A stretch of DNA of 11,539 nucleotides from an uncultured archaeon (GCA_964590575.1 CAZPWM010000102.1:1-11539); one strand, 5' to 3'; numbered from the stretch's first letter, positions 1,049 through 11,539 are shown. Numbers and translations: made by a program. The notes: generated by a model not told the origin, from the letters alone.

Positions 1049-1120
1049 AGGCTAAGGGCGGGGTTGGCTAACGGGACCTTTCCCGAACCGTGCATTGTTG
1101 AGCACCCTTTTCATTTTTCA
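1049..1120 (+). repeat. Cassette-boundary repeat copy R1 (type A)
   Basis: AGGCTAAGGGCGGGGTTGGCTAACGGGACCTTTCCCGAACCGTGCATTGTTGAGCACCCTTTTCATTTTTCA; 29-bp core 1056-1084 is identical to R2 and R4. Confidence 0.95.
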
Positions 1121-1147
1121 ACCACTCACCAGTATTCCATACAGGAG

Positions 1148-1176
1148 TTTATATATCTACATCTACATATGTAGAT
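1148..1176 (+). promoter_or_regulatory. TATA box plus palindromic operator candidate for the vapBC operon
   Basis: TTTATATA at 1148-1155, followed by the perfect 16-bp palindrome ATCTACATATGTAGAT at 1161-1176, just upstream of ATG 1188. Confidence 0.65.
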
Positions 1177-1187
1177 TGTGAACCACT

Positions 1188-1436
1188 ATGACATCAAAGA
1201 CGATCTCTGTTACAGAAGACGTTTACAACCTCCTCCGAAAGATGAGATTGCCTGGAGAGAGCTTTGGCGAAACCATCACTCGACTCTGTAGACTCAAAAC
1301 ATCTCTTTCTTTGCGTCTGTGGGCAGAATCATCTGATGGCTGGAGTGATTTGACACCTGATGAAGAAGCTAGGCTCGAAGGCACACTTGAAACGATACGC
1401 ACCACTCTGCGTCCTGAAGAGGTAGATCTCGATTGA
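1188..1436 (+). CDS. vapB: Archaeal VapB-family antitoxin
   Basis: N-terminus KTISVTEDVYNLL...GESFGETITRL is typical of archaeal VapB (DUF217-like) antitoxins; acidic C-terminus; stop overlaps the TTG start of the PIN gene. Confidence 0.85.
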   Translation: MTSKTISVTEDVYNLLRKMRLPGESFGETITRLCRLKTSLSLRLWAESSDGWSDLTPDEEARLEGTLETIRTTLRPEEVDLD

Positions 1437-1840
1437 CATTCCTTGACACCACATTCCTTGTGGATATTCTAAGAAAGGACAATGCGGCAATCTCATGGCT
1501 GAATGATATGGAAGAACAAGCGCTGTACACCTCCGAGATTAATGTTTTCGAACTCTACACAGGTCTCTTTAGAATCTCAGAGAGTTCTAAGACGAAGCTG
1601 AAGAAGAGGACCTTTGAGCTCGAACAGCTTCTCTCTCGGATGGAGGTTGTTTCCTTTGACCGGAACTCAGCCATTGAGTCCGCAAAAGTTCTCTCTCTTC
1701 TGATGAGCAGAGGTGAACCTATTGGTGCTCGTGACATCATGATTGCTGGCACAGCACTCTCTAGGGGAATAAAACGACTGGTGACTCGTAACATCCGAGA
1801 GTTTCAGAGGGTTCCAAGTTTGAACACTGAGTCCTACTAG
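1433..1840 (+). CDS. vapC: VapC-family PIN-domain ribonuclease toxin
   Basis: FLDTTFLVD, SEINVFEL, DIMIAGTA, LVTRNIREF PIN motifs; 135 aa; coupled to the antitoxin via a TTGA overlap. Confidence 0.93.
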   Translation: MTFLDTTFLVDILRKDNAAISWLNDMEEQALYTSEINVFELYTGLFRISESSKTKLKKRTFELEQLLSRMEVVSFDRNSAIESAKVLSLLMSRGEPIGARDIMIAGTALSRGIKRLVTRNIREFQRVPSLNTESY

Positions 1841-1916
1841 ATTTATGCGGTCCAAGAACCATCACTTTGGAGTCAAATGACATTTCAATTGTTCATCATC
1901 TGAGAAACCTAGGTGC

Positions 1917-1990
1917 AGGCTAAAGGGCGGGGTTGGCTAACGGGACCTTTCCCTAGCCGCTCACTGTTGGGCACCCTTTCTCTTTTGCAA
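1917..1990 (+). repeat. Cassette-boundary repeat copy R2 (type A)
   Basis: AGGCTAAAGGGCGGGGTTGGCTAACGGGACCTTTCCCTAGCCGCTCACTGTTGGGCACCCTTTCTCTTTTGCAA. Confidence 0.95.
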
Positions 1991-2038
1991 TTGATAATAC
2001 TGAGCAGAGTATACTCTATCTTTGAAGACATTTTGGTT

Positions 2039-2578
2039 TTACTTTGACCTTCGTCGATATCTAACTAGACCGAGCAAGAAGTTCAGCATTGGTACTCTCT
2101 TTCTGTACTCTAGGTACGATTGTCCAAATTTCTCTACATTCGACTTGTCCTCAGAGTATGAATAATACACCACAATGAAAAACGGTACAATGCCCAGAAG
2201 AATTGTAATCCAGTATTGGGAGATAAACATCATTGCGATGATGGCAATCAACCAGCCTAGATAGAGCGGGTGTCTTACAATGCCATAGATGCCAGTATCA
2301 ATTACTACTGTTGTGTTGACCCAGCTCTTTCCTTCAGGTATATTCCCTTTCTTTGAGAGATCAAATCGAGGAACGCTCATCATTATGAGTCCAAGTATTA
2401 ACAACAACCATCCTGTATAGAGAAAGATATCGATGGAATAGATATTGTAGTAAAGAAAGAAACATAAAATGATTTCTAAAACAAATAGAATTCCACTGAT
2501 GGTCGAGATGACAAGTTCAGCTTTTGTAGGTTCCCAGGCTCTCGTATTCTCTGGTACTCCAGACTCCGATTCAACCAC
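2039..2578 (-). CDS. Isoprenylcysteine carboxyl methyltransferase (ICMT/PEMT) family membrane protein
   Basis: TGIYGIVRHPLYLG and SED...KFGQSYLEYRKRVP motifs; TM helices; TGGTGA SD upstream of the GTG start. Confidence 0.88.
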   Translation of the reverse strand: MVESESGVPENTRAWEPTKAELVISTISGILFVLEIILCFFLYYNIYSIDIFLYTGWLLLILGLIMMSVPRFDLSKKGNIPEGKSWVNTTVVIDTGIYGIVRHPLYLGWLIAIIAMMFISQYWITILLGIVPFFIVVYYSYSEDKSNVEKFGQSYLEYRKRVPMLNFLLGLVRYRRRSK

Positions 2579-2762
2579 GATTCGTCACCAGCTACTCAAA
2601 GAGTCTACACGAAGGATGATATAAATTTCGCAACATCGTGGTAACACAGGATCCTATTCCTACTGGTACAGGCGAAGAGAATATAGAGCAAATCAGTAAC
2701 TGGACGAGGTTATAAGGGTGGCTAAAAGTTACTTACAACCCGGTAGCTTCAGGACTGTAACT

Positions 2763-3395
2763 ATGATAGACCTTGATGTTGTGACTATGTTGACAGAAAT
2801 TGAATTATTCCCCGCACTTGAAATTGGATGGTTCAATGGATGGACCCTCTTGCTAGTATTGTACTTGGCATATGGTGTCTTGCTCCTCGTTTTCCCCAAG
2901 CATGTGGTGAAAAGACTCTACGAGTATAACAGGTCTAGTTGGAGTAGAAGACATCGAGTTTTTTATGTGACCGAGAAACTGCTGCTCGTAGTCTATATGA
3001 TTCTAGTAGTACTTTCTCCACTCAAGACTGATTCCTTTATTTTCATTCCCGGGATTATTTTCTTCTCTTTTGGTCTGACTGGTTTTATCATCGCGCTATT
3101 CAACTTCAAAAACACTCCACTCAATCAGCCAGTTTCCAGAGGGCTCTATAGAATATCACGCCATCCTCAGATACTCATGTTGTTCATTGCAGGTAGTGGG
3201 ATTGGTATTTCTATAGGCTCATTGCTCGTACTATTCATCCAAATATTTACCGCATTCCTCGGTCGGTCCAGAGTTCTAGCAGAGGAACAATCTTGCTTGG
3301 AACAGTATGGTGACCTGTACCGCGATTACATGAAAAGTGTTCCACGGTATCTTTTCATCAAAACGCGTGTCGAGGGTGCCAACTCTCTTTACTGA
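2763..3395 (+). CDS. ICMT/PEMT family membrane methyltransferase
   Basis: GLYRISRHPQ and AEEQSCLEQYGDLYRDYMKSVPRY motifs; TM helices. Start uncertain (GTG 2718, ATG 2763 or ATG 2787). Confidence 0.85.
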   Translation: MIDLDVVTMLTEIELFPALEIGWFNGWTLLLVLYLAYGVLLLVFPKHVVKRLYEYNRSSWSRRHRVFYVTEKLLLVVYMILVVLSPLKTDSFIFIPGIIFFSFGLTGFIIALFNFKNTPLNQPVSRGLYRISRHPQILMLFIAGSGIGISIGSLLVLFIQIFTAFLGRSRVLAEEQSCLEQYGDLYRDYMKSVPRYLFIKTRVEGANSLY

Positions 3396-3463
3396 CTGTG
3401 CTGATGACACGTTTGAGTTCTTAGATTATAACCTCGAATATCACTAGATGGACAAGAAGTACG

Positions 3464-3534
3464 AGGCTGACGGGGTCGGGTGAACAGGGAACTTTCACAT
3501 TCCGCACATTGTTAAGCACCCTTTCTATTTTACA
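3464..3534 (+). repeat. Cassette-boundary repeat copy R3 (type B)
   Basis: AGGCTGACGGGGTCGGGTGAACAGGGAACTTTCACATTCCGCACATTGTTAAGCACCCTTTCTATTTTACA. Confidence 0.92.
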
Positions 3535-3603
3535 TCTGTCAATCATGAATGAGTAGACTCTCCGATTCCCCATAGCTGAGTCAATCAACTCAATTCCAAC
3601 GAG

Positions 3604-3630
3604 ATTATAAGTAATTATCAACATTATAAG
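3604..3630 (+). promoter_or_regulatory. TATA-like direct repeat upstream of the RelE-type TA operon
   Basis: ATTATAAG occurs twice (3604-3611, 3623-3630), immediately upstream of the antitoxin start. Confidence 0.4.
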
Positions 3631-3641
3631 CCATGATAGAC

Positions 3642-3830
3642 ATGGGCGAAACAACCACTATTCCATTAACAAAAGAAACTCGCGATCTCTTGAAGAGATA
3701 TGGTCAGAAGGGAGAGACCTATGACGAGTTGATACGCCGCCTTCTTCAGGTTTCGGAACAGGTGGAATTTGCCAGAAGGCAGAAACGAATACTCGAGGAA
3801 GAGGAGTTCGTTCCACTTGACCAAGTATAG
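3642..3830 (+). CDS. Small antitoxin (RHH-like) of a RelE-type TA pair
   Basis: MGETTTIPLTKETRDLLKRYGQKGETYDELIRRLL beta-strand/helix/helix pattern, acidic tail EEEEFVPLDQV, overlaps the toxin start. Alternative start 3633. Confidence 0.82.
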   Translation: MGETTTIPLTKETRDLLKRYGQKGETYDELIRRLLQVSEQVEFARRQKRILEEEEFVPLDQV

Positions 3831-4098
3831 AGTTCTGCTCTCCCAGACCGCAATTTCACAACTGAGTCTACTAAATGCAAAACAGAAAAAGAGAGTTAAA
3901 GAAGCATTAGGAAACCTTGAGGATGATCCCTTCAGAAGAAGATCTGGTTCAGACATCAAGAAACTTGTGACTCCGGATGAGCCGCCTTTATACAGACTTC
4001 GGATTGGGGATTATCGAGCTATTTACTTTGTCGTCAATTATGAGGTTAAAGTCACTGAAATAATTCATCGAAGTAAAGGATACAGATGGCTGGAGTAA
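3817..4098 (+). CDS. relE: RelE/ParE-family toxin
   Basis: TTG start at 3817 after GAGGAG gives MTKYRVLLSQTA...DIKKL...LYRLRIGDYRAIY...IIHRSKGY, which are classical RelE motifs. The ORF-track start at 3769 is probably too long. Confidence 0.9.
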   Translation: MTKYRVLLSQTAISQLSLLNAKQKKRVKEALGNLEDDPFRRRSGSDIKKLVTPDEPPLYRLRIGDYRAIYFVVNYEVKVTEIIHRSKGYRWLE

Positions 4099-4124
4099 AT
4101 CCATCTCAGATAGATACGAAGTAA

Positions 4125-4197
4125 AGACTACCGGGCGGGGTTGGCTAACGGGACCTTTCCCTAACCGTACATTGTTGAGCCCCCTTTCTCTTTTGCA
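4125..4197 (+). repeat. Cassette-boundary repeat copy R4 (type A)
   Basis: AGACTACCGGGCGGGGTTGGCTAACGGGACCTTTCCCTAACCGTACATTGTTGAGCCCCCTTTCTCTTTTGCA. Confidence 0.95.
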
Positions 4198-4272
4198 TAG
4201 TCTGTCAGATGGATCTATACTATCTTTGACTACTCCCAATATTACTAACAACCAAGAAATTGGGAAGATAGT

Positions 4273-4914
4273 TCAAGATTCTTTACAAACGCGTTTTGGA
4301 AAGAGCATGCCCACTTCTTTTTGATATTCTACATAATCTCTCCCAAATTGGTCGATCAATACATCTTCCTCAGCCTTGGCTGTTGGATAGATTCCGATTA
4401 TTACAAATAACAATGGAATCAAGAGCCAATATGTTGACAGAACAAGTGCTAACCCAAAAATTATGCAAACATACGAGAAATAGAGCGGGTGACGAACTAT
4501 TCTAAAAGGTCCCGTAGTGATCAAAAGGTGATTCTCTAATGCTCCTGACGGGGCTGGTCGCACATATTTTCCTGCAACAATAAGGACCCAGTTGTAAATA
4601 AATCCACCAATGTAGAAAAATGTGAGGCCAACTATTTGGATATAGATATCAAATTCAAATGTGAATGTCATGATACCAAAGACCGCATAGTACAAATTGA
4701 GAAATGAGAAGATGATACCGGATATCCAAAAGAACCACATAAACAAAATTCCACTTACAAAAATCAAGAATACTGGTTTGTTATATTTCGCCTTCCTAGA
4801 TTCTGTTTCTTCTTTCTTATCTCTATGAAATCCTCTCCAATAACGTATAGAAGGAATCGTCATTGTGACTAGGGGCAATGAAAGGAGTATTGCAGTCCAT
4901 AATTCAGGTAACAT
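4273..4914 (-). CDS. ICMT/PEMT family membrane methyltransferase
   Basis: LITTGPFRIVRHPLY and AEEDVLIDQFGRDYVEYQKEV motifs; AGGTGA SD upstream; start ATG 4914 or TTG 4917. Confidence 0.9.
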   Translation of the reverse strand: MLPELWTAILLSLPLVTMTIPSIRYWRGFHRDKKEETESRKAKYNKPVFLIFVSGILFMWFFWISGIIFSFLNLYYAVFGIMTFTFEFDIYIQIVGLTFFYIGGFIYNWVLIVAGKYVRPAPSGALENHLLITTGPFRIVRHPLYFSYVCIIFGLALVLSTYWLLIPLLFVIIGIYPTAKAEEDVLIDQFGRDYVEYQKEVGMLFPKRVCKES

Positions 4915-5034
4915 CAATAACTCACCTAGATTATATGCTCATACTATTTTCCCCGAGATTGCAATCCTGTCAACCCTGAAGATAAACTTGTGTATATTTC
5001 ATACCTTTCTCAGTGATTTTATACTGATACGTAA

Positions 5035-5104
5035 AGACTGACGGTGTCGGGTGAACATGGAACCACACCTCCCTCACCTGTTGAGCACCCTTTTCATTTT
5101 GCAA
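5035..5104 (+). repeat. Cassette-boundary repeat copy R5 (type B)
   Basis: AGACTGACGGTGTCGGGTGAACATGGAACCACACCTCCCTCACCTGTTGAGCACCCTTTTCATTTTGCAA. Confidence 0.92.
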
Positions 5105-5160
5105 TTACCTGAAATCGAAAGACCCATATTTAATTTCAATGAGCATTGAAACGTTGTGGT

Positions 5161-5694
5161 ATGATGTCTGTATCTGACACAATACGGTTCAAGATGATTT
5201 CTTTCATGCATGGGACCTTGTATCACTTTTTCGTTGACCCAGCGAAATTACTACACGATGCTGGACTCGAATTGGGTCAGACTGTTCTCGAAGTTGGCTT
5301 TGGTCCTGCTTTCTTTACCCTCCCTGCGGCAAGGATTGTGGGCAGCCACGGTCGCGTCTATGCGATTGATATCAACAGAATGGCTATCGAGAAGTTGAAA
5401 CAGAAGATTGAGGCTAGAAATATAGCAAATATAGAGGTTAAAATGGTTGACGCGAGTGATACCAAGCTTCCTCCTTCTTGTATTGATACCGCATTTCTTT
5501 TTGGTGTGATTCATGCATTTGACGATATAGATTCGGTAATGCAGGAGCTACATCGAGTCTTAAAGGATGGTGGTATTCTGTCTATTCAGAAAGGCCGATG
5601 GTCAAAGGAGAGAATTGTCGCAGCTACAACCAAAAACGGGCTGTTTAGTATCAGGAGCAGCAAAGGGAGAGTTCTCAGATTTCGAAAAACCTGA
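5161..5694 (+). CDS. Class I SAM-dependent methyltransferase (UbiE-like fold)
   Basis: Motif I VLEVGFGPAFF, VYAIDIN, VDAS, ELHRVLKDGGIL; ATG at 5161 preferred over TTG 5146. Confidence 0.88.
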   Translation: MMSVSDTIRFKMISFMHGTLYHFFVDPAKLLHDAGLELGQTVLEVGFGPAFFTLPAARIVGSHGRVYAIDINRMAIEKLKQKIEARNIANIEVKMVDASDTKLPPSCIDTAFLFGVIHAFDDIDSVMQELHRVLKDGGILSIQKGRWSKERIVAATTKNGLFSIRSSKGRVLRFRKT

Positions 5695-5837
5695 CATCGG
5701 TATCAACCTCTCATCCATTCATATCGCAAATCAACTCAAGTCCGGTCATATTAATTGCTTCTTCCTTGAGTGCTCTATTGAAGTAGAGAGAAGTAGAGAC
5801 AGCGGGAATCGTGGTGCAATCGATAGGTTGCCCCGAC

Positions 5838-5894
5838 GCCATGGCGGAAACTTGCCCTGGCAGTTCACTGTTGAGCACCCTTTCTCTTTTACAA
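5838..5894 (+). repeat. Cassette-boundary repeat copy R6 (divergent 5' half)
   Basis: GCCATGGCGGAAACTTGCCCTGGCAGTTCACTGTTGAGCACCCTTTCTCTTTTACAA; 3' half conserved, 5' half has a different sequence but is still self-complementary. Confidence 0.85.
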
Positions 5895-5974
5895 CAGCTT
5901 CTCAAAATAGTGCAATTACCTGAATTGAGATACAATTATTTTCATGAATGTCATTAAGACAATAGGTCAATGAT

Positions 5975-6556
5975 ATGGGTTCCACACTCTCACCTATCTT
6001 ATTCACAGATCGGCTTGTTATCCGTTCATATTGTCTAGGCGACGAGAACTGGTACTACAAAATGAGTCAGAGAAACCATGCACACTTAGAGAGATACGAA
6101 CTAGATAATCCAGCAATGGCAATCAAGACTGAAGAAGACGCTACGAAGATGATAGCTGATCTTGTAGACGAGTGGCAGAAGGGTACTCATCACTTCATGG
6201 GAGTATTCCTCAAAGAGTCTGAGCAGTTCGTTGCTCAGATTTACATTGGTCTTGTGAATCTAGATGTGCCTGAGTTTGGAATTGGTTATTTTTCAGACGT
6301 TGAACATGAGGGTAAAGGATACGTGACAGAGGCTGTAAGTACAGTAGTTAAGATGCTTTTTGAGAGCTTTCATGCTCATCGGATTCGTATTGAAACTGAT
6401 GATACTAATCTACGAAGCATACGCGTTGCAGAAAGATGCGGTTTTGTGAGGGAGGGTCACATTCGAGAGAACAAGAAAAACCCTGACGGAACCTATTCTG
6501 GTACTTTGTACTTTGGACTATTGAGAAGTGAGTTTCTACCAAATCGCTCTTGTTGA
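5975..6556 (+). CDS. GNAT N-acetyltransferase, RimJ/RimL family
   Basis: TDRLVIR, EFGIGY, EGKGYVTEAV, NLRSIRVAERCGFVREG, YFGLLRSEF motifs. Confidence 0.92.
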   Translation: MGSTLSPILFTDRLVIRSYCLGDENWYYKMSQRNHAHLERYELDNPAMAIKTEEDATKMIADLVDEWQKGTHHFMGVFLKESEQFVAQIYIGLVNLDVPEFGIGYFSDVEHEGKGYVTEAVSTVVKMLFESFHAHRIRIETDDTNLRSIRVAERCGFVREGHIRENKKNPDGTYSGTLYFGLLRSEFLPNRSC

Positions 6557-6575
6557 GCCACCCTTTCATTTTGCA
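6545..6575 (+). repeat. Cassette-boundary repeat copy R7 (3' half only)
   Basis: CGCTCTTGTTGAGCCACCCTTTCATTTTGCA; overlaps the stop codons of both flanking convergent genes. Confidence 0.8.
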
Positions 6576-7405
6576 GCTTCGACATTTTCCCTCTCAATCA
6601 ATTCACCTACAGTAGCCCAGAAATAGGATGGATTCTCTGTATGAAGTCCATGTCCTGCATTAGGTATAAAGAGAAGTGGGAGCCGTGCATTTCTCACAAG
6701 CTTCTCAGATGAGTAAATACCCCTATTCTTCTCTCCGAAGATGAAATAACAATCAAAATCACGATGCGCTAGCAGTCTTTTCAGCAAGTTTCCCTTTACG
6801 GAAATTGGTGCTAAGTCTTTGCTGGACGCCCATATTGTGAATGGCCCTGCTTTTCGAAATGAAGAAACAAATTCAATCATATGCTCCTCTTGAGAATCTC
6901 CTAGTATTTTACCACAAATCGATTCAAAATCTTGTTGGAATTCTGAGAAGGACATCTTAGCGAATATAGACGAAAAGAATGCATCACCTGCATCAAGATT
7001 TCCTTCTAGATACAACAGCAGCTTGATTTTGGAATGAGGTGCATCATGATGAGCTAATAGTTCAATCAGCGAAACTGCTATTGGCCCTCCCATAGAATGA
7101 GCCAGTACAGAGAGTTGCTTGACATGTTCTCTCTCAAGGATAGCAATCAGGTACTTAGCTTGTTGGTCCATGGTATATGCTTCTGATGCATTACTCTTGG
7201 ATGAGTCCCCGTGACCTAGAAGATCTGGAATAATCCATGAGAACCTATCCAATGAATAGGTAGTGAAGTGTTTGAGAAACCACTTGCGACTATCTCCTAG
7301 TCCATGGATATAGAGATTCATCATGGGTCGGAGTGAGTTCGTATGAGCGTAATATACTATGGTCCCGAAGTCAGTTTCAAGACTCTTTGTTACTAAGCTC
7401 GTCAT
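6566..7405 (-). CDS. Alpha/beta fold hydrolase
   Basis: YIHGLG oxyanion motif, PDLLGHGDS, nucleophile elbow AHSMGG, C-terminal IPNAGHGLH catalytic His. Confidence 0.92.
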   Translation of the reverse strand: MTSLVTKSLETDFGTIVYYAHTNSLRPMMNLYIHGLGDSRKWFLKHFTTYSLDRFSWIIPDLLGHGDSSKSNASEAYTMDQQAKYLIAILEREHVKQLSVLAHSMGGPIAVSLIELLAHHDAPHSKIKLLLYLEGNLDAGDAFFSSIFAKMSFSEFQQDFESICGKILGDSQEEHMIEFVSSFRKAGPFTIWASSKDLAPISVKGNLLKRLLAHRDFDCYFIFGEKNRGIYSSEKLVRNARLPLLFIPNAGHGLHTENPSYFWATVGELIERENVEAAK

Positions 7406-7458
7406 AGCGCGATAATAGTGGCTTACTACTCAATTGGCTTTTTCTCTCTGGGAACTAG

Positions 7459-7530
7459 GAACTGATGGGGTCGGGTTAACAGGGAGCTTTTCCCTTGCCT
7501 GAAACTGTTGAGCACCCTTTTCATTTTTAG
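7459..7530 (+). repeat. Cassette-boundary repeat copy R8 (type B)
   Basis: GAACTGATGGGGTCGGGTTAACAGGGAGCTTTTCCCTTGCCTGAAACTGTTGAGCACCCTTTTCATTTTTAG. Confidence 0.92.
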
Positions 7531-7605
7531 GAAACGCTGATACCTCAGTACAGGCTTTTTGTAATTGCAAAACGAAAGTCTAATATTACTCATGACTCCA
7601 TCCAA

Positions 7606-7649
7606 TTATGAATCATGATGCATTAGAAATATCAGAACATGATTCGTAA
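7606..7649. promoter_or_regulatory. Inverted repeat upstream of the ferritin-like gene
   Basis: TTATGAATCATG (7606-7617) and CATGATTCGTAA (7638-7649): 12-bp arms, one mismatch, 20-nt spacer. Confidence 0.4.
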
Positions 7650-7672
7650 CTCTATAATAAGAAGTGTTGACA

Positions 7673-8173
7673 ATGGGAAGGAAAGGAACTGAAATAGTCA
7701 AAGCCAAGCTTGATGTCGATAATCTACTAAAACTACTAAACAAAGCATTTGCAGACGAGTGGTTAGCGTATTACCAGTACTGGGTTGGTGCAAAGATAGT
7801 CCAAGGGCCAATGAGAGGTCTCTTGGAGTCAGAACTAATGGAACATGCTGGTGATGAGCTTAGACACGCTGGGCTGCTGGTGGAGAGAATGATTCAGTTA
7901 GGTGGAACTCCTTTGATTAAGCCAGAGGATTGGTATAAGGAAACAAATTGTGGATATGAAACCCCATCAGATCCATCGGTTCGTGCGTTACTAGTCCAGA
8001 ATATCAAGGGAGAACAATGTGCAATAGAGGTCTATAACAAACTGGTTGAGATGACTGAGGGAAAGGATCCAATCACTCATAAGTTGGTTCTCGAGATTCT
8101 TGCAGATGAGGTTGAGCATGAAGAAGATCTTGAGGCTATTCTTGAGGATCTAAAAACACTTACCTCCAAGTAA
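7673..8173 (+). CDS. Ferritin-like protein, DPS-like (DPSL)/bacterioferritin-related
   Basis: Di-iron ligands ADEWLAYYQY, DELRHA, GEQCAI..Y, DEVEHEEDL; two cysteines (TNCGY, EQCA) as in DPSL 'thioferritin' proteins; ATG 7673 preferred over GTG 7664. Confidence 0.88.
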   Translation: MGRKGTEIVKAKLDVDNLLKLLNKAFADEWLAYYQYWVGAKIVQGPMRGLLESELMEHAGDELRHAGLLVERMIQLGGTPLIKPEDWYKETNCGYETPSDPSVRALLVQNIKGEQCAIEVYNKLVEMTEGKDPITHKLVLEILADEVEHEEDLEAILEDLKTLTSK

Positions 8174-8272
8174 GACTCAAAGAAACCTTAGGAATCCCGC
8201 TATCTATTTCCTAGTCAATCATTTAGTTGGCTTTCTATATATCATCCAAAAACTGACTAATTACGTTAGGTA

Positions 8273-9286
8273 TTAGAGGTGATGATTTCTTTTAACGCTC
8301 GTATTACTAAGTTCATAAAAAACATCATGTCCAACACGTCTTGTTTTGACGTATTCATTATTTTTTAGCTTATTCAATATGGAGATAACAATAGAAGACA
8401 TGACCCCCAACGAAATACAAATGTCGGAAATTCTACATGGTCTGCGTTTCAGAAGCTCCAATAATTCATGCTCAAGAACATGATGTGCTTTCCATTTCAC
8501 ATCCTTATTCCTAGCATCATGAATCCCATATATCCACAATCTCTCTGAACCAAGATGACCCTCAAGGTCCCGTCCAAACTCTAGTAGGGTTTTGTTTGGT
8601 ACCGGCTTGACTGTTCGTACAGCTGCAGGACGCCATGGTGTATAGATTTGAACGACATCGGGGTCCACTTCAATAATGCCATCTATAAGGGCTCTCCTTG
8701 GAGGGCCCTCCACATTCGTCAGACCGCTTGAATCTCTGAGTAACATGACCTCAAGTGCCAACATACCTTTCATTTCACTATGGATCTGTTTGATTCCATC
8801 TTGAATCTCATGAAGCTTGAATGTACCCTTCGCAGGACGGTTGATGCGTTTGAAAGTGTCCTCGTCCCCTGCATCATACTTTGCTGTTATAATATCAAAA
8901 TCCTTGATTCTTTTACGGACTTCTTTTCTCGGGAGTAAGGATGCATTTGTAAGAAGAACTATTGGCAATTCTTCTACAATATCACGGATTTCAGATTCAA
9001 TCAATCCGATATTCGGATTTAGAGTGGGTTCTCCAGTCCCTGAGAAAGTTAAAACATCAACAGTTTTCTGGTCCAATCTTTCTAGGGTCCTCTTAACATC
9101 CAGAATTATATCCTTGGTTGGTGGAATTTCATTCTGAACATCCTTCGGAGATGTTACATGTTTCTCAGTGAAACCAAGTTGACAATAAACGCAATTGAAG
9201 GTACACTTCTTTGGTGGTGTTGTTATGTCTACCCCCAAGGAACGTCCATAACGCCATGAGGCCACTGGACCATATGTGTATGTCAT
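8273..9286 (-). CDS. Radical SAM Fe-S oxidoreductase (COG0731-like) with probable C-terminal HTH-like extension
   Basis: YGPVASWRYGRSLGVD N-terminus, CTFNCVYC (CxxxCxxC), TFSGTGEPTL, LLTNASL; start MTYTY at 9286. Confidence 0.9.
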   Translation of the reverse strand: MTYTYGPVASWRYGRSLGVDITTPPKKCTFNCVYCQLGFTEKHVTSPKDVQNEIPPTKDIILDVKRTLERLDQKTVDVLTFSGTGEPTLNPNIGLIESEIRDIVEELPIVLLTNASLLPRKEVRKRIKDFDIITAKYDAGDEDTFKRINRPAKGTFKLHEIQDGIKQIHSEMKGMLALEVMLLRDSSGLTNVEGPPRRALIDGIIEVDPDVVQIYTPWRPAAVRTVKPVPNKTLLEFGRDLEGHLGSERLWIYGIHDARNKDVKWKAHHVLEHELLELLKRRPCRISDICISLGVMSSIVISILNKLKNNEYVKTRRVGHDVFYELSNTSVKRNHHL

Positions 9287-9328
9287 AGTTACACACATAC
9301 CTCTTCATTGTTCACATCTGTAGGCATC

Positions 9329-9616
9329 TCACTCCTGTTTTTGAATCTCTGACAAACGCTTCTCGACATTCTTTAGACTATCCTGAAGATTCCTGATTTG
9401 CTCTTCAAGAAGCCCTTTCTGACTCTGCAGAGCTTGCAGATCAGCACCTGTCGAAAATGCGGGGAATGCAGCGCCAACGCTTGGACGATATCCCATATAC
9501 CAACAAGAACCGCGTCCATAGAGCCAGCCGGGTCTCTCCCAAGGCGGTAAGTTTCTGAATGGCCCGTTTCCTGGCCATTGACCGCGACTGCCTGAGCGTC
9601 CATATCCTCCTCTCAC
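9329..9616 (-). CDS. DUF5320-like small protein (Gly/Arg-rich N-terminus, C-terminal coiled coil)
   Basis: GGAGGTGA SD before the GTG start; RGGYGRSGSRG N-terminus and LQALQSQKGLLEEQIRNLQDSLKNVEKRLSEI heptad coil; such proteins often neighbour Mrp/P-loop Fe-S genes. Confidence 0.7.
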   Translation of the reverse strand: MRGGYGRSGSRGQWPGNGPFRNLPPWERPGWLYGRGSCWYMGYRPSVGAAFPAFSTGADLQALQSQKGLLEEQIRNLQDSLKNVEKRLSEIQKQE

Positions 9617-9640
9617 TTATCTTCACCTCCTTCCTTCTTT

Positions 9641-10465
9641 TCACATCCCAATTTTATTGCTGAGCTGTTCAACAACTTGACCAAAAGCCTTGGCAGCCTT
9701 GGAGTCTGGATCCTCCACTACAAATGGAGTCCCTTTGTCAGAGAGGCTTATAATTCTAGGATCTAACGGCAAAGAGCCCAGATGATGAACTCCTAACTCA
9801 TCCGCCGCCTTCTGAGTCACTCCCTCCCCGAATAACTTGGTGGACTCTCCACAATGTGGACATACGTACTCACTCATATTTTCAATGATCCCTAAGATTG
9901 GTACTCCCATCCTCTGAACAAGCCGAATTGCTCTACGCGCATCAAGCACAGCCACCTCCTGCGGGGTTGATACAATAACAACACCATCAATCTCGGGAAT
10001 GGACTGGAGAATACTTAGGATTTCATCGCCTGTGCCAGGAGGAAGATCAACTATAATGATATCTAGCTCTCCCCACTTGACCTCGCTCAAGAACTGTTGA
10101 ATGGCTTTTCCAACAAGTGGTCCTCTCCACGCAACAGCATCATCAGCATTTTGAAGAAGAAATCCCATGCTCATCACTTTGAGATCAAGAGGACCTCTTA
10201 TCGGAATGATTGCATTATTCTCTACTTGAGGATGTTTTCCTTCTAATCCCAATAGTTTCGGCACATTTGGACCATAGATGTCAACATCAAGGATACCTGA
10301 TTTCAAACCCCTCTTTGCGAACGACACAGCCAAGTTCGTAGCAACTGTAGTCTTCCCAACTCCGCCTTTTCCTGAGAGTACAACAATCTTATGTTTCACA
10401 TCCTTCATATTCTCTCTAATTTCAGGAGAAACCATATCCTTAGCTTTTGAATCAGCTTTGGTCAT
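9641..10465 (-). CDS. mrp: Mrp/NBP35 (ApbC) family Fe-S cluster carrier ATPase
   Basis: VLSGKGGVGKTT, DVDIYGPN, WRGP, DLPPGTGD, VSTPQ, GIIENMS..CPHC motifs. Confidence 0.95.
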   Translation of the reverse strand: MTKADSKAKDMVSPEIRENMKDVKHKIVVLSGKGGVGKTTVATNLAVSFAKRGLKSGILDVDIYGPNVPKLLGLEGKHPQVENNAIIPIRGPLDLKVMSMGFLLQNADDAVAWRGPLVGKAIQQFLSEVKWGELDIIIVDLPPGTGDEILSILQSIPEIDGVVIVSTPQEVAVLDARRAIRLVQRMGVPILGIIENMSEYVCPHCGESTKLFGEGVTQKAADELGVHHLGSLPLDPRIISLSDKGTPFVVEDPDSKAAKAFGQVVEQLSNKIGM

Positions 10466-10521
10466 TTATGACACCTTCTCAAGATTGTTTCCAAATATTA
10501 CTCGTAATTGGAACAACCCTG

Positions 10522-10551
10522 TTTTATAATGAATCAAGATTCATTATAAAA
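10522..10551. promoter_or_regulatory. Perfect palindrome, candidate operator of the mrp operon
   Basis: TTTTATAATGAATC-AA-GATTCATTATAAAA: perfect 14-bp arms with TATA-like TTTTATAA on both strands, 57 bp upstream of the mrp start. Confidence 0.7.
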
Positions 10552-10602
10552 TCAACGGTGCGACAAAAAGTAGGACAGCATGTTTCTAAGGTATATTTTG
10601 AA

Positions 10603-10671
10603 AGACTCAAGGGTTAAGTGAACCAGGAACGACTATTTCCTGATACTGATGAGCACTATTTCATTCTACAA
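10603..10671 (+). repeat. Degenerate cassette-boundary repeat copy R9 (type B-like)
   Basis: AGACTCAAGGGTTAAGTGAACCAGGAACGACTATTTCCTGATACTGATGAGCACTATTTCATTCTACAA aligns colinearly with R5/R8 with many substitutions. Confidence 0.7.
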
Positions 10672-10721: not shown

Positions 10722-11129
10722 ATGTCCACTTCTGAAAACATGAATCAACCTGCTCATTCAAATGAACAATTAATGTTGTTTGAAGGAATAATAATTGGAA
10801 TCTATGGTAATTGGTTGATCACGCTTATTCAGCTAATCACATTCACATCTGCTCTGATTGTTCCTCAGATTATTCTGACTTTGGTGTCTTTACTAAGTCT
10901 AGTTCTCCTATTAGCACTTGGTGTTTTCGGAGGAAAATTCGAGAATCACTATGTTGTATTGGCACTGGCTTTTCTTCATTATTTTCCTCTATGTATCACT
11001 CTTGCACTTGAACGTCTTCTAATTCAGGATGCATTTTTCTTGGTGATTGGTGCTATCCTCTTTTTCATGATTTATATGGCCGAACATACACGCGCAAGAG
11101 CATCTGAACGAGCAAGACGTAGAAACTGA
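10722..11129 (+). CDS. Hypothetical membrane protein (~4 TM helices)
   Basis: 135-aa ORF with four hydrophobic segments and a basic C-tail; no family recognised. Confidence 0.7.
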   Translation: MSTSENMNQPAHSNEQLMLFEGIIIGIYGNWLITLIQLITFTSALIVPQIILTLVSLLSLVLLLALGVFGGKFENHYVVLALAFLHYFPLCITLALERLLIQDAFFLVIGAILFFMIYMAEHTRARASERARRRN

Positions 11130-11213
11130 ATTCATTATTAATTTCAAATTACAAGGAACTTGAGTGCAACTGATATAAGCAGTTGCAGAACCTGTTCAAA
11201 TGTAGTGTAGGCT

Positions 11214-11539
11214 ATGACGCAAGTGTTCTGGTCTGAGGAAATAGATCAGCTACTTACTTCACTAGATACAGGAATATCTGGCTTAACTTCAGACCAAGCA
11301 AAAGCAAGACTTCTTTCATATGGACCTAACAGACTCAAACCCAAGAAACGAACTGACTCGCTTTCACTTCTCTTGCGTCAATTCAAAAGCCCAATAATAT
11401 TGATTCTTTTGTTTTCTGCGACTCTTGCACTATTAGCAAGCGATAACATTGATGGATTGATAATTATCATTATCGTTCTTCTGAGTAGCACTCTTGGATT
11501 TTGGCAAGAACGGACAACCACGAACGCTATTGAGCAATT
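11214..11539 (+). CDS. mgtA: Cation-transporting P-type ATPase, probably Mg2+-translocating (3' truncated)
   Basis: Not in the ORF track because it runs off the window. My translation: MTQVFWSEEIDQLLTSLDTGISGLTSDQAKARLLSYGPNRL...LLRQFKSPIILIL...IVLLSSTLGFWQE, a Cation_ATPase_N signature (GLT...RL..YGPN, QFKSP, FWQE). Mg2+ specificity is a best guess. Confidence 0.8.
   Translation, partial: MTQVFWSEEIDQLLTSLDTGISGLTSDQAKARLLSYGPNRLKPKKRTDSLSLLLRQFKSPIILILLFSATLALLASDNIDGLIIIIIVLLSSTLGFWQERTTTNAIEQ

Follow-up and report, generated by a model that had tools for sequence, protein, structure and literature searches.

The described systems closest to the locus analysed here are integrons and clusters of attC sites lacking integrases (CALINs). 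In its accessible part, the survey by Ghaly et al. 2022 (PMC9668308) reports integrons, mostly CALINs, in 75 metagenome-assembled genomes (MAGs) of archaea, with an enrichment in Asgard archaea; neither Thorarchaeota nor 16S is mentioned in that part of its main text. The accessible text of a preprint on Tn7 in Asgard archaea (10.1101/2025.07.27.667033) contains no mention of rRNA, 16S or Thorarchaeota. Here we analyse an 11,539-nt stretch of DNA from an uncultured archaeon (GCA_964590575.1, CAZPWM010000102.1:1-11539; the window), in which co-oriented copies of a ~70-nt repeat separate short gene units. An initial annotation had read it as an integron-like platform for site-specific gene capture and shuffling that uses a non-standard site. 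It is best described as a cassette array anchored at a 16S rRNA gene and bounded by copies of the rRNA trailer, which is integron-like in function only. The anchor is the 16S gene and not an integrase with attI, and we speak of a somewhat integron-like way of working and not of an integron. The small units, the single locus, the co-orientation and the reordering of units in relatives support that annotation in part, but the site is a 16S trailer copy and probably not attC-like.

The likeness to integrons and CALINs lies in the tandem units of one or two genes, the co-oriented repeats of which the proximal copies are best preserved, and the accessory cargo, i.e. toxin-antitoxin (TA) pairs, GNATs, methyltransferases and metal-resistance genes. 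Unlike integrons, the arrays have no IntI, attI or Pc and a 16S rRNA gene is their anchor, the repeat is a trailer copy and apparently not an R''-L''/L'-R' hairpin, the breakpoints are dispersed, the variable part goes with the downstream unit, and 37% of the open reading frames (ORFs) lie on the opposite strand. Some features resemble attC. The GTTGAGC of the repeat fits GTTRRRY, the R' consensus of attC, and one repeat type (type A) has a GGCTAAC 24 nt upstream; the inner distance is too short for L boxes, and folding is weak. Neither a linkage to the upstream ORF nor a crossover at the G|TT of R', as expected of attC, was found. Integron cassettes are mostly co-oriented and read from a common promoter, whereas here 142 ORFs lie on the strand of the repeat vs 84 on the other. 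In all, four of the five defining features tested for membership of the integron family are lacking, and the signs are mixed for the fifth, the attC structure.

Three other systems invite comparison. Islands that accrete at tRNA or tmRNA genes by means of a tyrosine integrase also have direct repeats that copy the 3' part of a stable-RNA gene with its flank, and these repeats are co-oriented, stacked outward from the intact gene and decayed at the distal end; here, however, the target is a 16S gene, the units are 0.3-3 kb long and without integrase, and there is no sharp common crossover. No element-encoded integrase was found in the arrays, neither in the window nor, among the families listed, in the relatives. 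To our knowledge there is no precedent for a 16S rRNA gene as such a target, and our literature searches found none. The titles and abstracts returned by full-text literature searches describe no array behind a 16S gene, although these searches work by term matching and are no proof of absence. In the archaeal pre-16S processing stem, where a motif of the bulge-helix-bulge (BHB) type is cut by EndA, the 3' strand of the helix corresponds to the native copy of our repeat, but here this strand is repeated up to 15 times behind the gene. Finally, the Vibrio superintegron is likewise a long chromosomal array of near-identical repeats (Vibrio cholerae repeats, VCRs) with scattered TA cassettes. VCRs are attC sites served by IntIA, whereas the repeat here is derived from rRNA and no recombinase was found.

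The window contains nine copies of the repeat, R1 to R9, all on the plus strand, when the core TGTTGAGCACCCTTT is searched with at most 3 mismatches. The cores start at 1096, 1965, 3510, 4173, 5079, 5869, 6551, 7506 and 10647, i.e. with spacings of 869, 1545, 663, 906, 790, 682, 955 and 3141 bp, in agreement with the initial annotation. By chance 0.37 matches are expected in the window, and none of 200 shuffles reached ten. A tenth match, on the minus strand at 6178 with 3 mismatches, is at chance level.

The window is the whole of contig C102 in a 3.4-Mb MAG (G000 in our numbering) of 194 contigs and 91% completeness. An nhmmer model of the nine copies finds twelve matches in this genome, nine on C102 and three on C137, co-oriented on each contig; the sole further match is noise (E 2.9). 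The core itself occurs elsewhere in the genome at chance level, 235 observed vs 256 expected with at most 2 mismatches, none of them with a T tract. The reverse complement of C137 overlaps the start of C102 by 71 nt with 1 mismatch, inside a TauE/SafE gene, and the end of C73, which bears an archaeal small-subunit (SSU, 16S) rRNA gene, overlaps the start of the reverse complement of C137 by 55 nt exactly. In the joined locus the 16S gene is followed by a trailer of ~77 nt, the first copy, and 11 further copies over ~17 kb. Upstream of the 16S gene are housekeeping genes (TatD, M1 peptidase, MFS transporter, class I tRNA synthetase).

The same anchoring is found in other genomes. The first copy lies directly behind the 16S gene or its 3' end in G000, G029, G030, G028, G025 and G016, which belong to four genera. 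In G029, two contigs that overlap by 55 nt give a 16S gene followed by 15 copies over ~40 kb. Copy scores are highest near the 16S end, while the distal copies are decayed. Synteny between genera extends over the upstream flank and the 16S gene, whereas different content follows the first copy. G028 has a single copy, and the sequence downstream of it has nothing in common with the other arrays, so that no 'empty site' could be defined.

Two features of the joined locus were seen in passing. The 16S gene is 2.3 kb long (C73 of G000, 13812-16104) and holds an insertion of ~800 nt with a LAGLIDADG homing-endonuclease-like ORF (14749-15588), which is probably an rRNA intron. The first unit behind the 16S gene, next to the native copy, is large; it consists of two paralogous glutamate dehydrogenase genes (positions 1870-3162 and 4055-5305 of C137), an unknown ORF of 266 aa and a gene for a protein of 356 aa that has two winged-helix domains.

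The arrays are restricted to one family, of the Thorarchaeota (Asgard archaea). A 22-nt pattern, allowing at most 2 mismatches, is found in 22 of the 36 other genomes of this family (f1) and in none of 24 genomes from 17 other families of the phylum; the reversed control of the pattern gave one match. An exact scan with one genome per species returned 34 loci, where ~1 chance match is expected; by title these are 29 Thorarchaeota, 3 Promethearchaeota, 1 uncultured archaeon and 1 Kangiella. Orientation is uniform within the contig for all 143 nhmmer matches (27 contigs, 19 genomes). A scan of metagenome contigs added 42 stretches with 89 copies, none with mixed orientation. No repeat site was found in the viral contigs scanned. 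Copies scattered in both orientations, or an identical gene order in relatives, had been named as findings that would tell against a cassette array; the copies lie in one locus and one orientation, and gene order differs among the relatives.

The native 16S gene has a 3' trailer whose distal part is the ~70-nt repeat, and every copy can be aligned to this trailer. The leader segment GCTCAACAGTGTGC, 160 nt upstream of the 16S gene, pairs at 14 of 14 positions with the trailer segment GTACACTGTTGAGC, which is the conserved core of the repeat. Beside this 14-bp helix, five further leader-trailer helices cover the rest of the repeat, among them (leader/trailer) GCCTGTACTTC/GAAGTACGGGT, CCGTTA/TAACGG, CTCTGC/GCGGGG and AGCCA/TGGCT. 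Judged from this predicted pairing, the repeat is the 3' strand of the pre-16S processing stem, and no canonical BHB motif was found in the predicted helix. The module consists of a GAAGTA box, a variable branch, the core ACACTGTTGAGC and an oligo-T tract, TTTTCATTTT or TTTCTCTTTT. Oligo-T tracts are signals for transcription termination in archaea. Within the core, conservation is 0.83-0.99 per position (135 copies from 19 genomes, the copies being anchored on the core), and the core with the T tract is what survives in decayed copies, such as R7 and the distal copies of G005.

The initial annotation had called the repeat structured, which holds only in relation to the 16S leader. Single copies of the window fold no better than shuffles (z -2.1 to +1.0, n=9), the same is true of a wider set (mean z -0.49, 8% below -2, n=134), and the RNAalifold consensus of the copies has 8 weak pairs only. 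The single copies fail to fold significantly because their pairing partner is the distant 16S leader. All copies keep a strong predicted pairing with it (-62 kcal/mol, as against -38 when the copies are shuffled). In G030, 11 of 12 copies (the native one and 10 of 11 internal ones) have the core CTGCTGAGC or CTGCTGAAC, which fits the leader variant GCTCAGCAG of that genome, and the sequences indicate that the copies evolve in concert with the native trailer copy.

Eleven array-internal copies in six genomes extend upstream into the last ~55 nt of the 16S gene (helix 45 and the tail): four in G027, three in G029 and one each in G022, G026, G012 and G034. A regular expression for the 16S end had flagged 13 non-native copies, of which G016a_2350 and G034b_4922 were dropped as unconvincing in the alignment. 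The extended copies hold two trailer hairpins, helix 45, a 30-nt hairpin insert with compensatory changes, and ATCACCTCCT. No 16S body precedes any of the eleven, and a search of the G027 contig for an SSU rRNA gene found none.

The 30-nt hairpin insert separates GGATGG from ATCACCTCCT at the extreme 3' end of the 16S gene (C137 of G000, ~6735-6705, minus strand; also in G029, G028 and the internal copies). The native 16S gene of G030 does not have it, and the end coordinate given by Rfam was off by 30 nt because of it. An additional insertion of ~26-31 nt is present just before helix 45 in G029 and G028.

The units between the copies change partners. When copies were compared between genomes, 56 pairs share the upstream 400 nt, 71 the downstream 400 nt, and only one pair shares both, i.e. 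the units assort independently and the repeat is almost always a synteny breakpoint. The spacing of copies has a median of 1265 bp (quartiles 819 to 2253; 136 anchored copies), and 81 of 109 units contain one (53) or two (28) ORFs of at least 80 aa. Of 226 array ORFs, 84 (37%) oppose the strand of the repeat; the locus of G000 has 12 on the strand of the repeat vs 9 opposed. A unit with a DUF7557 antitoxin and a ParE toxin, present in the window, lies between copies in seven other genomes, with other neighbours. The GNAT unit of the window has homologues in G027, G012 and G030; its hydrolase unit is flanked by repeats on both sides in G030 and adjoins one in G027; and G005 and G027 also have its block of ferritin-like, radical SAM, DUF5320 and Mrp genes. 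A like change of neighbours between genomes is seen for the GNAT, hydrolase, TauE and P-type ATPase units.

To describe the cargo of the relatives, 101 representative array proteins of at least 140 aa were compared with Pfam. Among the 25 commonest of the 57, 68 and 36 families found per batch are methyltransferases, GNATs, PIN, radical SAM, P-type ATPases, HMA, ArsA, ArsR and MerB, as well as an aminoglycoside-2''-adenylyltransferase-like family, a PFL-like enzyme and two TnpB-like (Cas12f1-like_TNB) ORFs.

The exchanges do not take place at a single position. Relative to the core, breakpoints were placed at about -105, at -55 to -42 (three cases), at -21, at -5 to 0 and at +15 to +35 (two), and are thus spread over ~140 nt. 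They were placed by inspection of the closest genome pairs (88-94% flank identity); an automatic finder (first 12-nt window with at least 5 mismatches) gives too much noise when identity is 80-88%. Among 133 aligned copies, the 49 pairs with a common upstream unit exceed random similarity only to the left of GAAGTAGAGGC, and the 61 pairs with a common downstream unit are more alike from GGGTC onward. By this comparison, it is the downstream unit and not the upstream ORF that the variable half goes with. Mosaic copies exist, with the 5' part of type B and the spacer of type A. A strain in run X5 is 98% identical over the methyltransferase and GNAT units of the window, with a different spacer before 5079 and a different sequence after R7. 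Homogenisation within lineages is seen as well; both sides of a unit have the same repeat type in G025, and G029 has two types.

No recombinase was found in the window or the rest of the G000 locus, so the remark in the initial annotation that none is in view extends to the whole locus. Tyrosine recombinases (PF00589) have no match in G000, G005, G027, G011, G014, G035 and G028; they are present in 16 of 41 genomes of the family, never on an array contig. Resolvases occur in 8 of 28 genomes of the genus and Y1 transposases in 1 of 28, none on array contigs. The suggestion to look beside the arrays for an IntI/Xer, serine or HUH (Y1) enzyme thus led to none on array contigs. With dispersed breakpoints and no such enzyme beside any array examined, the label 'site-specific' is not borne out.

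A separate observation concerns genus g1, where PF00589 is absent from seven of the eight genomes tested (G000, G001, G005, G011, G014, G017 and G027) and only G015 has matches; seven of eight are thus without a detected Xer-type enzyme. All 14 control genomes gave PF00589 matches.

Starting from this anatomy, i.e. anchoring at 16S, restriction to one family, co-orientation and independent assortment of units, we read the window as the distal two thirds of a hypervariable 16S-anchored cassette array whose units are exchanged by recombination in the trailer modules, most likely homologous; we put the probability of this reading at roughly 60%. Units would enter, leave and swap through recombination within the repeated modules. 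Circles with one module each could integrate in the Campbell manner, direct repeats could recombine to excise what lies between them, and double crossovers could occur between the arrays of related strains; gene conversion with the native trailer may occur in addition. The general homologous recombination of the host would most likely be responsible rather than a dedicated site-specific recombinase. The modules are probably retained as terminators or insulators behind the strong rRNA promoter. Recombination within a shared module is favoured by the dispersed breakpoints, the linkage of the module to its unit and the lack of an array-linked recombinase, and if recombination can take place anywhere in a shared homologous module, co-orientation follows automatically.

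Several points weigh against this reading. At 70-200 nt and with a similarity of only 65-90%, the modules are poorly suited to homologous recombination. Conservation is much higher in the 16-nt core than around it, as expected of a site recognised by a protein, and in 9 of the 11 extended copies the 16S-like segment has its 5' limit at TCCGT|AGCGG, a clustering that may point to a defined site. The searches could have missed a recombinase that is of an unrecognised kind or lies on an unbinned element, and the Pfam families beyond the 25 commonest of 57, 68 and 36 may hide one. No recombination intermediate and no circular contig was seen; the 42 metagenome stretches have no terminal overlaps and hence offer no candidate for a circular cassette. 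All genomes are MAGs, in which chimeric joins at repeats could inflate the apparent shuffling. Three joints at repeats in Logan contigs, with sides of at most 30 nt, were taken as repeat artefacts.

A bolder version, which we hold only tentatively, is that Thorarchaeota possess a counterpart of the integron that is independent of a recombinase (or uses a novel one). Here the rRNA stem and terminator module would be a portable landing pad, which captures, stacks and exchanges small circles or foreign fragments while they are insulated from the rRNA promoter. Each captured fragment would bring one module, and in some cases a functional 16S 3' end with it. In read-through transcripts there may also be competition from internal copies for the 16S leader, and cassette content would thereby be coupled to rRNA maturation.

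Among the rival explanations, the one that survives best is a true integron analogue, where an unrecognised site-specific recombinase encoded elsewhere, or on unbinned DNA, recognises the core CTGTTGAGCACCC and puts in or takes out circular cassettes, the 16S trailer is the equivalent of attI, and gene conversion later disperses the breakpoints. The high conservation of the core and its persistence in copies without the other parts would fit such a site, as would the match to the R' consensus, the strict co-orientation, the small units with accessory cargo and the clustered 5' limits of the 16S-like segments; CALINs without integrase are reported in Asgard MAGs (PMC9668308, accessible part). 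We nevertheless consider it unlikely. No tyrosine, serine or Y1 recombinase lies on array contigs, several array genomes have none at all, and no viral contig carries the site. The breakpoints are spread over ~140 nt, the variable half is tied to the downstream unit, unlike in attC, and the conservation of the core is already explained by leader pairing in the native copy together with concerted evolution.

Alternatively, the copies could be RNA or transcription elements, kept for the termination or processing of transcripts behind the rRNA promoter or for leader pairing in read-through, with the shuffling as a by-product of the many similar copies. The native copy, as a processing-stem strand followed by TTTTCATTTT or TTTCTCTTTT, is of this kind, decayed copies still keep the core and T tract, and both the strong predicted leader pairing and the compensatory G030 variant extend to internal copies. 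This explanation, which appears quite unlikely to us, does not account for why copies occur only behind the 16S gene or why units differ between relatives; moreover, 84 of the 226 array ORFs are on the opposite strand, and elsewhere in the genome the core is found at chance level without the T tract.

A dispersed repeat family, such as miniature inverted-repeat transposable elements (MITEs) or repetitive extragenic palindromic (REP) sequences, or an artefact of MAG assembly is very improbable, even though all data are MAGs and contigs often end at copies (e.g. C2 and C14 of G029), because there are no copies outside one locus, no contig with mixed orientation, and a like architecture in 19 genomes from many studies, while Logan contigs of run X1, from a second assembler, bridge six of the nine window copies (R3, R5-R8 and R9) in window order with 0 to 1 mismatches, and identical unit-plus-module junctions recur in independent MAGs of different studies.

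If exchange within trailer modules is true, the archaea closest to eukaryotes have a platform for gene capture and shuffling whose building block is the processing and termination signal of the rRNA gene itself, not an integrase with its sites. The arrays are a defined hotspot for accessory genes in Asgard genomes, with TA pairs, metal-resistance and detoxification genes and methyltransferases, and they offer a concrete, testable model of integrase-free cassette exchange. There are also practical consequences. The assembly and binning of Thorarchaeota MAGs, and their linkage to 16S, are affected by partial 16S 3' ends in arrays and by contig breaks at copies, and integron surveys could miss these arrays or miscall them CALINs.

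The gene content between the copies of the window is as the initial annotation had it, with TA pairs, a GNAT, methyltransferases and a hydrolase, and this cargo is integron-like. Before R1 lies a plus-strand unit (1-1039) with a rhodanese gene (594-1010, Pfam Rhodanese), together with a TauE/SafE-like membrane gene of which only the 3' part is in the window. Its 5' part is on C137, the joined ORF of 286 aa spans the overlap of the two contigs, and TauE is found in the homologous unit. R1 (1040-1120, core 1096-1110) is a trailer-module copy of type A, which begins with GGGCGGGGTTGGCTAAC. It is followed on the plus strand (unit 1121-1908) by a VapB-like antitoxin (1188-1436) and a PIN/VapC toxin (1433-1840; Pfam VAPB_antitox and PIN). 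R2 (1909-1989, core 1965-1979) is of type A with the variant GTTGGGC. The next unit (1990-3453) has genes on both strands, two PEMT/ICMT-like membrane methyltransferases at 2039-2578 (minus) and 2718-3395 (plus). R3 (3454-3535, core 3510-3524) is of type B, which begins with GACGGGGTCGGGTGAAC, and precedes the plus-strand unit (3536-4116) with the DUF7557 antitoxin (3633-3830) and the ParE/RelE-type toxin (3769-4098).

R4 (4117-4197, core 4173-4187) is again of type A, and its unit (4198-5027) holds a PEMT/ICMT-like membrane methyltransferase on the minus strand (4273-4917). R5 (5028-5103, core 5079-5093) is of type B and is followed (unit 5104-5812) by a plus-strand S-adenosylmethionine-dependent methyltransferase at 5146-5694. 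In R6 (5813-5893, core 5869-5883) the 5' half is of type C, the native 16S trailer type of genera g3 and g4. Its unit (5894-6550, plus) is the GNAT acetyltransferase (5975-6556), whose stop codon lies within the core of R7. This copy (6536-6575, nhmmer E 1.5e-9) is truncated to the core and T tract, and the convergent genes for GNAT and hydrolase both reach into it with their stop codons; the alpha/beta hydrolase (6566-7405) is on the minus strand of the unit 6566-7451. R8 (7452-7530, core 7506-7520) is of type B. The long unit behind it (7531-10598) has genes on both strands, a ferritin-like gene at 7664-8173 (plus) and, on the minus strand, radical SAM (8273-9298), DUF5320 (9329-9616) and an Mrp/NUBPL P-loop ATPase (9641-10465). 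R9 (10599-10671, GATGAGCACTATTT) is a degenerate distal copy with an nhmmer E of 3.2e-10. The plus-strand segment after it (10722-11539) encodes a 135-aa membrane protein and the N-terminus of a P-type ATPase; it may be a further unit rather than flank, because the ATPase sits between repeats in G027 and G029.

In a search of the window against Rfam 15 (E at most 10), nothing overlaps the repeat except RAGATH-7, whose E of 5.2 is noise, and ARAGORN finds no tRNA or tmRNA gene in the window. A C/D-box, K-turn or tRNA-like nature of the repeat was considered and dropped, as the boxes are missing in type A and ARAGORN finds nothing. A weak match to the CPEB3 ribozyme at 5665-5711 on the minus strand (20.3 bits vs a gathering score of 35, E 0.16) is taken as chance.

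The three PEMT/ICMT-like genes are in two separate units of the one array, and two of them cluster together by BLASTP. In a subset of the copies, mostly before antitoxin genes, the TTTTGCA is followed by a conserved stretch of ~30 nt, roughly AGTCAATCATGAATGAGTAGACTCTC. It is seen at 3536-3575 of the window and behind many copies of relatives, e.g. the native copy of G029 and copies in G027, G012 and G016, and may represent a promoter or an extension of the module.

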